DNA from: Escherichia coli
GTDB lineage: Bacteria > Pseudomonadota > Gammaproteobacteria > Enterobacterales > Enterobacteriaceae
Reading direction: 5' to 3' (one strand)
Assembly: GCF_003334355.1 (NCBI RefSeq)
Contig: NZ_QOWP01000005.1
DNA length: 64,000 bases
Position 1 is the stretch's first letter; each line of letters starts with the position of its first letter. The notes beneath the pieces are model-generated. The model made no database searches. It was not told the DNA's origin and saw nothing but the letters and a program-made list of their open reading frames with translations. This document shows positions 156 through 8,235 of this stretch, one piece after another. A program made the translations under genes and the position numbers.

Positions 156-198
156 ATGTAAAAAAGCGCCCTAAAGGCGCTTTTTTGCTATCTGCGAT
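138..198. repeat. Direct repeat copy 1 (tRNA-Lys 3' end + terminator), 61 bp
   Basis: Reads identically to 294-354 by eye. Confidence 0.85.
160..188 (+). terminator. Rho-independent terminator of the tRNA operon
   Basis: GC hairpin agcgccctaaaggcgct followed by TTTTTT. Confidence 0.8.
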
Positions 199-293
199 AC
201 TCAAAGATTCGAACCTGCAGCAGGTTTGAGTTGAGCGCAGCGAAACAACGGAGCCGCTCGCGGCGACGGCCCGAAGGGCGAGCGAAGCGAGTC

Positions 294-354
294 ATCCTGC
301 ACGACCCACCAATGTAAAAAAGCGCCCTAAAGGCGCTTTTTTGCTATCTGCGAT
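294..354. repeat. Direct repeat copy 2 (orphan tRNA-Lys 3' fragment + second terminator copy), 61 bp
   Basis: Identical to 138-198; contains ...cctgcacgacccacca and the same hairpin/T-run. Confidence 0.85.
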
Positions 355-430: not shown

Positions 431-772
431 ATGGCCACTATCTCTTCAACTTCAATTCCTTCCATACAAACACAGAGTAGTAACAGGGCATCACAAGGTG
501 GCGATGTTGCTTCACAAATCGCGCGGATAAGTCAGCAAATCATCAAACTCACTCAACAAATTAAAGAGATTGTAGACACTAGCGGCAGTGCTGAAGACAA
601 GCAAAAACAGGCCGAATTGATTCAACAGCAAATCACCCTACTGGAAACACAACTGGCGCAGTTGCAGAGACAGCAGGCAGAAAAGGCGCAGGAGAAAGAG
701 CAGCGTTTGTCTCTGAATGTATCCCTTCTAAATCCTGTTGAAAAAACGACTCATATCGATATCTATATCTGA
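431..772 (+). CDS. FlxA-like glutamine-rich coiled-coil protein (113 aa), function unknown
   Basis: ORF with GAGGA RBS 8 nt upstream of ATG; Q/A/E-rich heptad-like segment ([30 protein letters not shown]) resembling the FlxA family as I recall it; not verified by search. 3' end overlaps yfeR stop by 10 nt. Confidence 0.6.
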
Positions 773-1689
773 TACAACGGATCCCCTTCCCGACCAGCCA
801 TTAGCGCATTGCCCTGGTCTCGTACCACGTCCCATAACGCTTCAGCGGCGGTGGAAAGTGAACGGTTCTTCCTGCGCACCAGCATCAACTGGCGTTCAAC
901 AACCGGCGTAATGCGCTGTACCACCAGTGGGCTACCTTCAGGCAATGGTAGCGCCAGTGCGGGAAGAATACTGATGCCGATGCCTGCGGCTACCATCGGG
1001 AACAGCGTCGCCGGATGTCCAATCTCCTGCACAATATTCGCCTGAATACCATTGCGCGCCAGCGCTGCGTCAATCAGCGGTCGGCTGCCTGACGCGTAAT
1101 CCTGCAACACCAATTTCGCTCCCTGTAATGCCTGCCAGGGTACATAATCTTCCACGGCCAAAGCGCTATCGCGATGGCAAAGCAGAAAGAAAGGCTCGGA
1201 AAGAATCGCTTCACATTGCAGATCGCCCACTGGGCCTGGATCGATGACGATGCCAAAATCGACATCTCCCTGGCGAATACTTTCCATTACCCACTGCTGC
1301 GGACGATCGTGCAGGACAAACTGAATATCTGGATAGCGGCGATGGCTTTCAGCAATGCATTGCGGAATAAGATGCGCGGAAATGGTCTGGCTGGCAGCGA
1401 CCCGAACTTTTCCGCTCAGTTGTTGCCCCATACGCCCGGTATCGCGCAACGTGCTGTTCAGTTCATCCAGCAGTCGCTCAAGACGCAAAGACAGCTGCTG
1501 CCCTGCATCTGTAAGCACCACTTCACGCGTGGTTCTGTCCAGCAGGCGAACACCAGTATGATTTTCCAGCTCCTTCACACTGTGACTCACTGCCGACTGG
1601 CTCAGGCCGATACGCTCTCCTGCACGACTAAAACTTTTCTCCTGCGCTACTGTGACGAAAACCTTTAATTGTTTTAAAGAATAATTCAT
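763..1689 (-). CDS. yfeR: LysR-family transcriptional regulator
   Basis: 308 aa; N-terminal HTH ([38 protein letters not shown]) and LysR substrate-binding domain; divergent from yfeH. Confidence 0.85.
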
Positions 1690-1778
1690 CTGTTTTCTTC
1701 ATGAATGGATGCAATAAATCAATTTTATTTCTCAAACTGGAAGAAGCACAATAGAACCATCGATCATCTGGAGTCTTT

Positions 1779-2777
1779 ATGAAACTTTTTCGTATCCTCG
1801 ATCCTTTCACCTTAACCCTGATCACGGTGGTGTTGCTGGCCTCTTTCTTTCCGGCCAGAGGCGATTTCGTCCCCTTCTTTGAAAATCTGACCACCGCAGC
1901 TATTGCCCTGCTGTTCTTTATGCACGGCGCGAAGTTGTCGCGTGAGGCGATTATTGCTGGCGGTGGTCACTGGCGACTGCATTTGTGGGTAATGTGCAGC
2001 ACCTTCGTGCTGTTTCCGATTCTGGGTGTACTGTTTGCCTGGTGGAAACCGGTAAATGTCGACCCGATGCTCTACTCCGGTTTTCTCTACTTGTGCATTC
2101 TCCCGGCTACCGTGCAGTCTGCAATCGCCTTCACGTCAATGGCGGGCGGTAACGTCGCGGCGGCGGTTTGTTCTGCGTCAGCATCCAGCCTGCTGGGGAT
2201 TTTCCTTTCACCATTGCTGGTTGGTCTGGTGATGAATGTTCACGGTGCAGGGGGCAGCCTTGAGCAGGTCGGTAAAATTATGCTGCAACTGCTGCTGCCG
2301 TTTGTGTTGGGGCATCTTTCCCGGCCGTGGATTGGTGACTGGGTGTCGCGCAATAAAAAATGGATTGCGAAAACTGACCAGACGTCCATTCTGTTGGTGG
2401 TTTATACAGCGTTCAGCGAAGCCGTCGTTAATGGTATCTGGCATAAAGTTGGCTGGGGATCATTGCTGTTTATCGTGGTGGTCAGCTGCGTTCTTCTGGC
2501 TATCGTGATTGTAGTTAACGTCTTTATGGCACGCCGACTGGGCTTCAATAAGGCAGATGAAATTACTATCGTCTTTTGTGGTTCGAAAAAGAGTCTGGCA
2601 AATGGCATCCCGATGGCAAACATTCTGTTCCCCACATCGGTGATCGGTATGATGGTGCTGCCCCTGATGATTTTCCATCAGATCCAATTGATGGTCTGTG
2701 CGGTGCTGGCGCGTCGATACAAACGCCAGACCGAACAGTTACAGGCACAGCAGGAAAGCAGCGCCGATAAAGCTTAA
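1779..2777 (+). CDS. yfeH: Inner-membrane transporter, bile acid:sodium symporter (BASS)-like family
   Basis: 332 aa, multiple hydrophobic TM segments; divergent partner of the LysR regulator. Confidence 0.8.
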   Translation: MKLFRILDPFTLTLITVVLLASFFPARGDFVPFFENLTTAAIALLFFMHGAKLSREAIIAGGGHWRLHLWVMCSTFVLFPILGVLFAWWKPVNVDPMLYSGFLYLCILPATVQSAIAFTSMAGGNVAAAVCSASASSLLGIFLSPLLVGLVMNVHGAGGSLEQVGKIMLQLLLPFVLGHLSRPWIGDWVSRNKKWIAKTDQTSILLVVYTAFSEAVVNGIWHKVGWGSLLFIVVVSCVLLAIVIVVNVFMARRLGFNKADEITIVFCGSKKSLANGIPMANILFPTSVIGMMVLPLMIFHQIQLMVCAVLARRYKRQTEQLQAQQESSADKA

Positions 2778-2992
2778 AGCGGACGCTTCAGGGGCTGGAC
2801 CAGTTGCGTCAGCCCCTCGGTTTTAATCAGCAGCGTGATTTGCATTAGCTCACCGAGCTTCCCTGCCGGGAATTCATCTTTGCGGGCAAACCACAGCAGA
2901 TACTCCTCCGGCAGGTCGATTAAGCGACGCCCTTTATATTTGCCAAACGGCATTATCGTATTGGCTATTTCAATCAGCTGCTCTTTTTCCAT
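2774..2992 (-). CDS. ypeB: Small conserved protein YpeB (DUF3820-like), 72 aa
   Basis: Internal start MEKEQLIEIANTIMPFGKYKGRRL chosen over the longer track ORF; sits directly 3' of ligA on the same strand. Confidence 0.7.
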   Translation of the reverse strand: MEKEQLIEIANTIMPFGKYKGRRLIDLPEEYLLWFARKDEFPAGKLGELMQITLLIKTEGLTQLVQPLKRPL

Positions 2993-2993
2993 C

Positions 2994-5018
<2,025 letters not shown>

Positions 5019-5025
5019 TCAATGC

Positions 5026-5050
5026 TAAAAACCCCCGACAAGCGGGGGTT
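5026..5050 (-). terminator. Hairpin + T-run between zipA and ligA (minus-strand sense)
   Basis: Minus-strand reading aacccccgcttgtcgggggttttt; lies about 17 nt upstream of the ligA start codon. Confidence 0.6.
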
Positions 5051-5079
5051 CGAAGAGGAGTTAATTTGCCTTAAGTGTA

Positions 5080-6066
5080 TCAGGCGTTGGCGTCTTTGAC
5101 TTCGCGGATGATGTCCTGGTACTCGCGCAATTTCTGCGGAGTCATCATACGGCGCTGATCGTCAAGCACGACACCGCCCACTTCATCGGCAATATGCTGC
5201 GCAGATTGCAGCATCAGCTTGAAGTTCTGCAGCTCGTCACCGTAAGACGGTACCTGCATAAAGATAGTGACACCCGGAGTAGTGAAATCCTTCATTTCAG
5301 GATCAAAGGTTCCCGGTTTCACCATATTCGCCAGGCTGAATAACGCCGGGCCGCTGCCATCCGGGCTAAGATGACGATGGTAAATATTCATATCGCCAAA
5401 AATGAAGCCCGCTTGTTGAATGCTGTTAAGAAGCAGTTCACCGTTTAGCTCGCTACCGTGATGCGCCGCGACGTTCATGATAATCACCGCTTCTTTGCGC
5501 TTCGGTTTATCCATAACTGGAGCCGGTTCCGCTACAGGCTCAGGCTGTGGTGCCGCTACGGGTTCTGCAGGCTGGAAAGCCTGTTGTGCCGGTTGCGGTG
5601 CTGAATGCACAGGCTGCGGCGCTGGCGCGACCTGTGGCGAAACTGGCTGCTGCAACGGCTGTTCAGGCTGCGGCTGATAGGCAGGCTGCTGCACCGGCTG
5701 CGCTGGATGCGGAGCATGTTGCGGCGGTACCTGCGCTTCAGGCGGCTGCTGGACCGGTTGACGCGGCTGCGCAGACGCATAAGGCGGTTGGTACTGGTGT
5801 TGCGGCGACGGACGAGCAGCCTCATGCTCCTGAGCGTTAGCCGGGGCATGATTCACGCGGTGAACACGAACCTCACCAACGCCCTCATCATCTTCGACAT
5901 CCTCGTCATAAGAATCGTCGTCACGTTTTGACTTCATTCGTTTTAATGGCCGATCGCGGAACATAGAAGATCGTTCTTTACGGCTGGTCCAGAAACCATG
6001 TACCAGTAAAGCGATTATGGCGATCGCGCCAACAATGATTAATATCAGACGCAAATCCTGCATCAT
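5080..6066 (-). CDS. zipA: Cell division protein ZipA (FtsZ membrane anchor)
   Basis: Start set at [22 protein letters not shown] (N-terminal TM); long P/Q-rich linker; C-terminal FtsZ-binding domain; 328 aa. Confidence 0.93.
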
Positions 6067-6295
6067 TATATTCTCTGTTGTTCTAACACCTTGCCACCAC
6101 GGCAAACATTTACTCACTAAGAGTATTTGCCGATTACCTCAAGTGCAAGTGCACTATTAACTTTCACAGCACAAAGATAGATGAAATCGTGCTTTTTGCT
6201 GTTTTTTCGAACATATCCTAACTGTCCATTGCGCAATTACCCGGTAAAATACGCAGAATTTTCCCGGGATTGGTCAAAAGGAGCTCATCCTGATT

Positions 6296-7057
6296 ATGGT
6301 TTCATCATTCACATCTGCCCCACGCAGCGGTTTTTACTATTTTGCGCAAGGCTGGAAGCTCGTCTCGCAACCTGGGATTCGGCGTTTCGTTATTTTACCG
6401 CTGCTGGTCAATATTTTGTTGATGGGGGGCGCATTCTGGTGGCTCTTTACGCAACTCGATGTCTGGATCCCGACTCTCATGAGTTATGTTCCGGACTGGT
6501 TACAATGGCTGAGCTATCTGTTGTGGCCCCTGGCTGTCATCTCTGTGCTGTTAGTGTTTGGCTATTTCTTCTCAACGATTGCTAACTGGATTGCCGCTCC
6601 GTTCAACGGTTTATTGGCTGAACAACTGGAAGCACGATTGACTGGCGCTACACCGCCAGATACCGGGATTTTCGGTATCATGAAAGATGTGCCGCGAATC
6701 ATGAAACGCGAATGGCAAAAATTTGCCTGGTATCTGCCACGCGCAATTGTATTGCTAATTCTTTACTTCATCCCTGGTATTGGGCAAACCGTCGCGCCGG
6801 TACTGTGGTTCCTGTTTAGCGCCTGGATGTTAGCCATCCAGTATTGCGATTACCCCTTCGATAACCACAAAGTGCCGTTTAAAGAGATGCGCACCGCCCT
6901 GCGCACACGCAAAATCACCAATATGCAGTTTGGTGCTTTAACCAGCCTGTTTACGATGATCCCGCTGCTTAATCTGTTCATCATGCCCGTTGCCGTTTGT
7001 GGCGCGACGGCGATGTGGGTCGATTGCTATCGCGATAAACACGCGATGTGGCGGTAA
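6296..7057 (+). CDS. cysZ: Sulfate transporter CysZ
   Basis: 253 aa polytopic membrane protein; immediately upstream of cysK. Confidence 0.93.
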
Positions 7058-7241: not shown

Positions 7242-8213
7242 ATGAGTAAGATTTTTGAAGATAACTCGCTGACTATCGGTCACACGCCGCTGGTTCGCCT
7301 GAATCGCATCGGTAACGGACGCATTCTGGCGAAGGTGGAATCTCGTAACCCCAGCTTCAGCGTTAAGTGCCGTATCGGTGCCAACATGATTTGGGATGCC
7401 GAAAAGCGCGGCGTGCTGAAACCAGGCGTTGAACTGGTTGAACCGACCAGCGGTAATACCGGGATTGCACTGGCCTATGTAGCTGCCGCTCGCGGTTACA
7501 AACTCACCCTGACCATGCCAGAAACCATGAGTATTGAACGCCGCAAGCTGCTGAAAGCGTTAGGTGCAAACCTGGTGCTGACGGAAGGTGCTAAAGGCAT
7601 GAAAGGCGCAATCCAAAAAGCAGAAGAAATTGTCGCCAGCAATCCAGAGAAATACCTGCTGCTGCAACAATTCAGCAATCCGGCAAACCCTGAAATTCAC
7701 GAAAAGACCACCGGTCCGGAGATATGGGAAGATACCGACGGTCAGGTTGATGTATTTATTGCTGGCGTTGGGACTGGCGGTACGCTGACTGGCGTCAGCC
7801 GCTACATTAAAGGCACCAAAGGCAAGACCGATCTTATCTCTGTCGCCGTTGAGCCAACCGATTCTCCAGTTATCGCCCAGGCGCTGGCAGGTGAAGAGAT
7901 TAAACCTGGCCCGCATAAAATTCAGGGTATTGGCGCTGGTTTTATCCCGGCTAACCTCGATCTCAAGCTGGTCGATAAAGTCATTGGCATCACCAATGAA
8001 GAAGCGATTTCTACCGCGCGTCGTCTGATGGAAGAAGAAGGTATTCTTGCAGGTATCTCTTCTGGAGCAGCTGTTGCCGCGGCGTTGAAACTACAAGAAG
8101 ATGAAAGCTTTACCAACAAGAATATTGTGGTTATTCTACCATCATCGGGTGAGCGTTATTTAAGCACCGCATTGTTTGCCGATCTCTTCACTGAGAAAGA
8201 ATTGCAACAGTAA
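7242..8213 (+). CDS. cysK: Cysteine synthase A (O-acetylserine sulfhydrylase A)
   Basis: 323 aa PLP-dependent fold; N-terminus [20 protein letters not shown]. Confidence 0.97.
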
Positions 8214-8235
8214 TGCCAGCTTGTTAAAAATGCGT

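Follow-up and report, generated by a model that had tools for sequence, protein, structure and literature searches.

How a small gene is expressed when it is wedged between two larger ones with almost no spacer, and how the transcripts that converge at its 3′ end are brought to a close, are the questions raised by ypeB in Escherichia coli. The window analysed here is a 64,000-nt stretch of the E. coli chromosome, in which each coordinate equals the MG1655 coordinate minus 2,525,167. Strain PSS-12 matches positions 1700-5100 with 100% identity, and this region was found in 5426 of 5426 complete E. coli genomes. RefSeq places yfeR, yfeH, ypeB, ligA, and zipA here, and its annotation of MG1655 and of a genome with 100% identity gives the coordinates stated below. 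The plus strand carries yfeH (1779..2777; 332 aa, bile acid:Na+ symporter family), which converges with ypeB on the minus strand (2774..2992; 72 aa, PF12843/DUF3820), and ypeB in turn follows ligA (2994..5009, minus strand), which encodes the 671-aa NAD-dependent DNA ligase. This arrangement of ligA, ypeB, and yfeH is ordinary and already annotated, and the antisense overlap of ypeB with yfeH is already published; what is added here is a small new example of a codon-constrained hairpin embedded in a neighbouring gene. Taken as a whole, ypeB is likely to be the distal cistron of a ligA-ypeB operon that is packed against the convergent yfeH. The comparisons below draw on 80 species-level loci encoding YpeB relatives, found with a seven-sequence alignment, in each of which LigA, YfeH, and ZipA were located. 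A search of Rfam gave no match at the ligA, ypeB, and yfeH junctions.

The gene itself is real. YpeB matches the Pfam model PF12843 (DUF3820, 'QSregVF_b') with an E-value of 4.4e-29 over model positions 2-66 of 66, and its family counts 894 cluster representatives at E<=1e-3 and shares a core that is strongly conserved (MPFGKYxGR..LPExYLLWF..GFPxGxLG..NGLExLxxPL), while synonymous sites of ypeB vary freely over most of the gene length. The AF2 model of the protein is a confident four-helix fold (pLDDT 95.5), and structure searches found no solved structure with this fold. A longer reading frame of 105 aa starting at TTG 3091, together with the 103-105 aa versions held in databases, was considered as the true YpeB and set aside, as only the 70-72 aa form is conserved; the longer start was rejected because the frame upstream of the ATG/GTG closes at once in seven species.

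At its 5′ end, ypeB almost touches ligA. The earlier note had placed its start 2 nt after the ligA stop on the same strand, which is right as a difference of coordinates; on the minus strand, the ligA stop TGA (2996-2994) is followed by a single spacer nucleotide, G (2993), and then by the ypeB ATG (2992-2990), so that the mRNA would read UGA-G-AUG. This anatomy is widespread. In all 65 of the 65 Enterobacterales species loci, ypeB is preceded by ligA on its own strand, and in 58 of them the two genes are directly adjacent. The stop-to-start distance falls between -8 and +4 nt in 48 of the 65, being exactly 1 nt in 29 and 0 nt in 7, with 2, 3, -1 (AUGA-type), and -8 nt among the other variants. 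Ten Enterobacterales loci have a distance of 14-236 nt, and in seven (Photorhabdus, Xenorhabdus, Arsenophonus, and Moellerella) one membrane-protein gene is located between ligA and ypeB. Outside Enterobacterales, the ypeB homologue is never beside ligA: no ligA was found nearby in 15 loci from Vibrio, Salinivibrio, Pseudomonas, Microbulbifer, Cellvibrionales, and Tolumonas, and an ORF listing of the homologues outside the order revealed no recurrent neighbour partner. Judged from the compared sequences, the conserved ligA-ypeB and ypeB-yfeH junctions are more than chance.

A putative signal for translation of ypeB lies within the upstream gene. The last ligA codons contain a weak Shine-Dalgarno-like sequence, UGGGUA (2999..3004, minus strand), 7-12 nt upstream of the ypeB ATG, and the duplex of this sequence with the anti-Shine-Dalgarno sequence is predicted at -3.7 kcal/mol. 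In the closest clade, ypeB begins at the homologous position with ATG in 16 cases and with GTG in 13, and the start codon varies together with the Shine-Dalgarno sequence, GTG occurring mostly with a GGAG-type sequence and ATG often with a weak one. GTG-start species mostly carry GGGAG or GGAG (-6.4 to -8.4 kcal/mol), the exception being the species at locus L028 (-4.0 kcal/mol).

Translationally coupled adjacent cistrons with stop and start codons within a few nucleotides of each other are well known, the classic cases being trpE-trpD, trpB-trpA, and galT-galK. ligA and ypeB resemble these pairs in lying on the same strand, in having stop and start 1 nt apart with a Shine-Dalgarno sequence embedded in the upstream gene, and in keeping this junction across a whole bacterial order; by contrast, the ypeB start flips between ATG and GTG, the homologue is not beside ligA outside Enterobacterales, and the coupling is a proposed one. 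RNA polymerase transcribing ligA would run on into ypeB, because a 1-nt junction has no room for a promoter or a terminator. Ribosomes ending at the ligA UGA would then re-initiate 1 nt downstream at the AUG (GUG in many relatives), presumably aided by the Shine-Dalgarno-like sequence in the last ligA codons, so that YpeB synthesis would be tied to LigA synthesis.

The suggestion made in the earlier note that ypeB is co-transcribed with ligA is thus supported by inference, from the virtual absence of a spacer, the Shine-Dalgarno-like sequence in the ligA end, the conservation of the junction across Enterobacterales, and a consensus scan that gave no sigma70-like promoter match in 1600-6400. 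Published expression data agree with it. When co-expression was analysed across resistant E. coli strains, ypeB and ligA, without zipA, fell into one 45-gene module that otherwise resembles the SoxS/MarA/Rob regulon, and in a paraquat time course, ligA is among the SoxRS-regulated genes and zipA is not. The SMRT-Cappable-seq data contained no ypeB entry, PRECISE/iModulon gave no match, and the MarA/SoxS regulon literature that was searched does not mention ligA, ypeB, or zipA. A scan with the marbox consensus for SoxS/MarA/Rob returned 21 matches against 15 expected, 0 of them upstream of ligA, which lends no support to a recognisable marbox at that position. Altogether, it is almost certain that ypeB is expressed together with ligA, as the distal member of one unit, and co-transcription with translational coupling, which we infer from anatomy and conservation, is the best reading and a well-supported one.

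Whether the unit extends further upstream, into zipA, is a separate matter. The earlier note had envisaged a zipA-ligA-ypeB transcript, and one long transcript of this kind could be the main source of ypeB mRNA: the three genes lie on the same strand, the zipA-ligA spacer is only 70 nt long, the scan gave no sigma70-like promoter between zipA and ypeB, and ligA needs a transcript that begins upstream of, or overlaps, a hairpin within this spacer, whether through read-through or through a promoter. However, it is this hairpin, AACCCCCG-CUUGU-CGGGGGUU followed by a T-run (5027..5050, minus strand), that makes a simple zipA-ligA-ypeB transcript doubtful. It ends about 18-20 nt before the ligA ATG, and all the Enterobacterales loci that were compared retain the GC hairpin, the T5-6 run, and the following GAUGGUG, the remainder of the spacer being variable. 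The element is a candidate for a conserved zipA terminator or a ligA attenuator. In the untreated samples of the bicyclomycin data of Adams et al., 219 reads fall in the 800-nt window upstream of MG1655 position 2529816 (minus strand) and 39 in the window downstream of it. Such counts would be expected if transcription dropped on entry into ligA, and they likewise argue against the long transcript, as do the SoxS-like module, which includes ligA and ypeB and lacks zipA, and the SoxRS list, which includes ligA and lacks zipA. We therefore regard a long zipA-ligA-ypeB transcript as rather unlikely to be the main source of ypeB mRNA; the terminator-like hairpin just upstream of ligA would instead largely insulate zipA from ligA. 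The consensus scan had missed this hairpin.

A further possibility is a promoter of ypeB's own. The earlier note had named a separate ypeB promoter as evidence that would speak against co-transcription, and on paper there is in part such a candidate, a sigma54-bound site inside ligA that is not conserved. Bonocora et al. 2015 (PMC4591121) reported the ChIP-seq site IS30 inside ligA, in sense orientation and 6-fold above threshold; transcription from it is predicted to begin 343 nt before the ypeB start. The corresponding -24/-12 motif, TTGGCATTGTCGTTGCA (3339..3355, minus strand; codons VGIVVA), is confirmed in the window as a near-consensus TGGCAT-N5-TTGCA at 3339-3354, with correct spacing of the -24 GG and the -12 GC. 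The same study showed that two comparable sites within genes act as promoters of the gene downstream, and cited a third from another group (PMC4591121). IS30 is like these sites (nagB to nagE, yqeC to yqeB, and rlmD to relA; PMC4591121) in being a sense, ChIP-bound, near-consensus site a few hundred nucleotides from the downstream start. From IS30, an mRNA with a 343-nt leader could arise under the signal of some enhancer-binding protein, and ypeB expression would therefore be at least partly independent of ligA.

Several observations weigh against this reading. None of the 66 further species loci examined keeps the full motif, E. albertii and a divergent lineage that bears an E. coli label (L003) among them, whereas the validated sites were reported as conserved (PMC4591121). 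What is left in these loci is just the GG-N10-GC core, which the Gly and Ala codons of a conserved LigA peptide, G-I/V-V-V-A, dictate; the site therefore has the look of a by-product of coding. A distance of 343 nt lies just outside the range of 360-760 nt that was found to be enriched (PMC4591121); neither an activator, an upstream activating sequence, nor a transcript has been reported for IS30; and a promoter within ligA cannot account for the conserved 1-nt junction. The ligA-internal site is probably lineage-specific and fortuitous. It is possible as a putative extra ypeB promoter, and as the explanation of ypeB expression we consider it very unlikely.

At the other end of ypeB, the gene runs directly into yfeH. 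As the earlier note had stated, the two stop codons overlap by 4 nt: the yfeH TAA occupies 2775-2777 on the plus strand and the ypeB TAA 2776-2774 on the minus strand, with TTAA (2774..2777) common to both coding sequences. The same 4-nt overlap of stops is present in 28 sampled species, all with Enterobacteriaceae genus names, and it is kept as YTAR (TTAA, CTAG, TTAG, or CTAA) although the stops switch between TAA and TAG on either strand. In Erwinia, Pantoea, Mixta, Serratia, and Rahnella, ypeB and yfeH are separated by a spacer of 27-131 nt that carries obvious GC hairpins and T-runs. Overlap geometry was also considered as a sign of an embedded terminator and dismissed: exoX-ptrB of MG1655 has the same 4-nt overlap and contains no embedded hairpin or terminator, so that the geometry alone implies none.

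What distinguishes the ypeB end is a hairpin on the yfeH strand, H1, which lies wholly inside ypeB and is antisense to its codons 56-68. It starts 13 nt after the yfeH stop and consists of AGGGGCUG-N12-CAGCCCCU (2790-2817), then CGG, and then UUUU (2821-2824), the whole element spanning 2790..2824 on the plus strand. Its 8-bp stem contains 7 G-C/C-G pairs and one U-A pair and has a predicted stability of -16 to -18 kcal/mol. First predicted from the E. coli fold alone, H1 was then found in all 28 overlap species, where 92.7% of alignment cells are paired and covariation is slight, with 6 cells changed on both sides, so that the case for the stem is chiefly one of conservation. The U-tract, UUUU(A/G)AU, follows a CNG spacer, or follows directly if two G-U pairs lengthen the H1 stem.

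The codons that encode H1 are constrained beyond the needs of the protein, and only where the spacer has been lost; this is the observation that is new here. In the overlap group, K57 is AAA in 29 of 29 sequences, G60 is GGG in 27 of 29, L61 is CTG in 28 of 29, Q66 is CAG in 23 of 24, and P67 is CCC in 29 of 29, while elsewhere in ypeB the codons for Gly, Pro, Leu, and Lys vary. Normalised synonymous entropy in this group is 0.11 for the H1 codons versus 0.69 for the 49 other codons (Mann-Whitney p=2e-4). In the 28 Enterobacterales outside the overlap group, which have either a longer spacer or no convergent yfeH, the H1 codons vary freely (0.87 vs 0.78, p=0.8). The H1 loop and the flanking codons vary in both groups. 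The H1 codons were fixed beforehand from the E. coli fold, and the groups to be compared were defined once the data had been seen; moreover, the sampled species are related, and the p-values therefore overstate independence.

Stability of the embedded hairpin also goes along with loss of the spacer between the two genes. The median free energy is -17.7 kcal/mol at gaps of <=7 nt (n=32) versus -8.9 kcal/mol at gaps of >=15 nt (n=11; p=7e-4), and most ypeB-yfeH spacers of >=27 nt carry a GC hairpin of their own. Four further spacer-less loci (L028, L030, L037, and L046) have a differently placed hairpin, formed by the codons E62-G63-L64 and K66-P67-L68. In a few species that do have a spacer, Serratia for example, the 3′ codons of ypeB likewise hold a stable hairpin.

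Intrinsic (Rho-independent) terminators can be shared by, or embedded in, convergent genes, in bidirectional or overlapping form, as described in the SEnd-seq literature. H1 is like these elements in having a GC-rich 8-bp stem and then a U-run, placed 13 nt after the yfeH stop, and related species have an ordinary hairpin terminator at the same place in their 27-131 nt spacer. It is unlike the shared terminators in that the whole element lies in the neighbour's coding sequence and is kept there by synonymous-site constraint, and in that its U-tract is short (UUUU) and offset by CGG. There is no U-tract after the hairpin on the ypeB strand, so H1 is not bidirectional. H1 is probably an intrinsic terminator or a 3′ stabiliser of the yfeH mRNA, and we conclude from the compared genomes that a structured element serving the yfeH strand appears to be accommodated within ypeB.

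A plausible history and mechanism can be outlined on this basis. The ypeB-yfeH spacer would be ancestral and would have been lost in the genomes with Enterobacteriaceae genus names; the hairpin terminator that it carries in Erwinia, Pantoea, Serratia, and Rahnella would have been replaced by the use of H1. The yfeH mRNA would most likely be terminated or stabilised by H1 about 47-51 nt past its stop, so that its 3′ UTR would be antisense to the ypeB end. Transcripts that read through H1 may then be stopped by Rho inside antisense ligA, where published data place a bicyclomycin-sensitive termination region downstream of yfeH (centre at 3584, plus strand; MG1655 2528751), about 0.8 kb past H1, with a Rho score of 6.7 computed from 800-nt windows on each side (Adams et al.). 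This downstream region implies leakage past H1, and H1 would be at best a leaky or moderate terminator, because it has only four U's, with CGG between them and the 8-bp core stem. Adams et al. 2021 give curated Term-seq tables in which only prominent ends are tabulated; these have no entry at MG1655 252799x/252800x, where a 3′ end at the H1 U-tract would fall, no 3′ ends at any of the three predicted sites, and neither 5′ nor 3′ ends for ypeB, yfeH, or the zipA-ligA spacer.

The packing could also be nothing other than neutral genome compaction, in which H1 is not a terminator, the antisense overlap has no regulatory consequence, and the H1 codons are frozen by another constraint, such as the structure or stability of the ypeB mRNA, a pause of ribosomes ahead of the stop codon, or a site bound by a protein or RNase. 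Overlaps of 4 nt between stop codons arise easily and are self-locking, as the hairpin-free exoX-ptrB pair illustrates, and the weak U-tract, the small covariation, and the missing entry among the prominent Term-seq ends are in keeping with such an account. It is countered by the codon AAA of K57, which forms the UUUU and is invariant only in the overlap clade; this is what one would expect of a terminator that serves yfeH, and not of a function in the ypeB sense strand. Embedded hairpins are, in addition, found wherever the spacer was lost, at a non-homologous position in the four species mentioned above, and are weaker where a spacer hairpin exists. Compaction without a function for H1 thus appears fairly improbable, and a 3′ element for yfeH is the preferred reading.

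The ypeB strand would end differently. A second, weaker hairpin, H2 (GGCGCUG..UGUGCC; 2744..2765, minus strand), begins 9 nt and ends 31 nt after the ypeB stop, inside the variable tail codons of yfeH. Of 27 species, 21 have an unusually stable hairpin in this position, whereas it reaches only about -11 kcal/mol in E. coli, and H2 is a candidate 3′ structure of the ligA-ypeB mRNA. ligA-ypeB transcripts, for which there is no canonical terminator after the ypeB stop, would run antisense into the yfeH tail that contains H2.

Since the coding sequences of yfeH and ypeB overlap, their transcripts must overlap as well. The proposal in the earlier note that the two 3′ ends are mutually antisense is borne out by published RNA-seq: yfeH-ypeB is listed in the MG1655 excludome as one of 165 convergent excludons (ExcludonFinder, NAR 2025, PMC12288877), inclusion in which means presence in at least 50% of 58 RNA-seq sets (PMC12288877). 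The pair resembles other convergent excludons in having overlapping transcripts from convergent neighbours (PMC12288877), and here the coding sequences overlap too. yfeH and ligA-ypeB have no obvious functional relation, and the listing refers to the overlap of their transcripts.

As to what YpeB does, its residues 12-38 (MPFGKYKGR..LPEEYLLWF) align with residues 172-201 of ExoX (hhalign E=7e-5, blastp 8e-5) and also with the C-terminal parts of two DnaQ-like NCBIfam models. YpeB thus resembles the C-terminal motif of exonuclease X (PF20600, ExoX-like_C) over this segment, and matches PF12843 from end to end. The link with ligA and the exonuclease motif suggest, as a lead only, an accessory role in DNA repair. 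All of these threads can be drawn into one joint reading, in which YpeB is a dedicated partner of LigA, FGKYxG...YLxW is a docking module, the unit is induced by SoxS/MarA/Rob, and a dual-coding yfeH terminator has evolved repeatedly; as a whole, we hold this to be distinctly unlikely. If it were true, YpeB would be translationally coupled to LigA in Enterobacterales, and the FGKYxG...YLxW motif would bring enzymes that process nicks or 3′ ends to a DNA structure or partner protein that they have in common. Induction of ligA-ypeB would go with that of the SoxS/MarA/Rob stress regulon. The yfeH terminator, for its part, would share its sequence with protein-coding information on the opposite strand, having arisen more than once upon collapse of the spacer.

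The value of the H1 result is modest. H1 provides a clear and testable case in which constraint on synonymous sites keeps a probable terminator inside the coding sequence of a neighbour, while the likely ancestral, spacer-borne terminator is still visible in sister families. Studies of ligA expression would need to take into account both the deeply conserved terminator- or attenuator-like hairpin just before ligA and a small protein, YpeB, that is probably coupled to the ligase and carries a motif in common with ExoX.

The convergent arrangement of ypeB and yfeH has a counterpart elsewhere in the E. coli chromosome, as the stops of exoX and ptrB in MG1655 (locus L083, positions 4780-4783) overlap by 4 nt, the same convergent stop overlap as in the yfeH-ypeB pair, and both pairs appear on the published list of 165 convergent MG1655 excludon pairs (ExcludonFinder, PMC12288877). 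The exoX-ptrB overlap was inspected for an embedded hairpin or terminator, and none was found. The exoX product, ExoX, carries the C-terminal motif to which YpeB shows a resemblance.

In published expression data, ligA and ypeB (2774-5009, minus strand) both belong to a co-expression module in which SoxS/MarA/Rob targets predominate (acrAB, zwf, fumC, nfo, sodA, fpr, and pqiAB, among others), and a 2007 microarray study listed ligA among SoxRS-regulated genes. A consensus scan turned up no recognisable marbox ahead of ligA. Within ligA, a bicyclomycin-sensitive (Rho) termination region has been published on the sense strand at window position ~4649 (minus strand; MG1655 2529816; Rho score 2.5).

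The zipA-ligA spacer carries a GC hairpin followed by a T-run (5027-5050, minus strand), located ~18 nt upstream of the ligA ATG. The hairpin sequence is kept in all Enterobacterales examined, with the remainder of the spacer being divergent, and the terminator scan of the window made no call at this position. The hairpin has the appearance of a terminator for zipA with a second role as an attenuator or leader for ligA. Upstream of zipA, a full-length match to Rev42_5p_UTR, an Rfam 5′ UTR family whose source is soft-rot Enterobacteriaceae, spans 6120-6553 (minus strand); it lies far below threshold (46.5 versus 229 bits, E=5e-11), and on the basis of this match the sequence suggests that zipA has a conserved long leader.

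Exact sigma54-type motifs (TGGCAY-N5-TTGCW) occur twice in the window, compared with 0.31 expected. The first (3339-3355, minus strand) lies inside ligA and corresponds to a published ChIP-seq site. The second (8203-8218, minus strand) is a candidate recognised by its motif and runs antisense across the cysK 3′ end, a placement obtained by coordinate conversion (MG1655 ~2,533,370-2,533,385 versus cysK at 2,532,409-2,533,380).

At the start of the window, an RtT RNA match in Rfam (186-311, plus strand; 46.7 bits, gathering threshold 45) directly follows two tRNA matches. Between this tRNA cluster and yfeR, a FlxA-like ORF of 113 aa (431-772, plus strand) shares 10 nt (763-772) with the 3′ end of yfeR and occupies the position held by yfeN in MG1655; this segment is strain-variable.

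Among the proteins matched in the YpeB homologue search, one (P0123, 630 aa) contains nine tandem YpeB/DUF3820 domain matches, and ypeB of Photorhabdus cinerea (L061:4001-4195) is cut to 64 codons. In the symbiont Candidatus Pantoea persica (L074:4001-4567), the gene is a probable pseudogene, because its frame departs after about residue 63 and extends 321 nt into yfeH. In Pseudomonas nitroreducens (L076:3575-3988), a 137-aa ORF stands immediately upstream of the ypeB homologue, and the N-terminus of its product looks, by eye, like a signal peptide. The Pfam name of PF12843, 'quorum-sensing-regulated virulence factor', may stem from adjacency to a gene of this kind.
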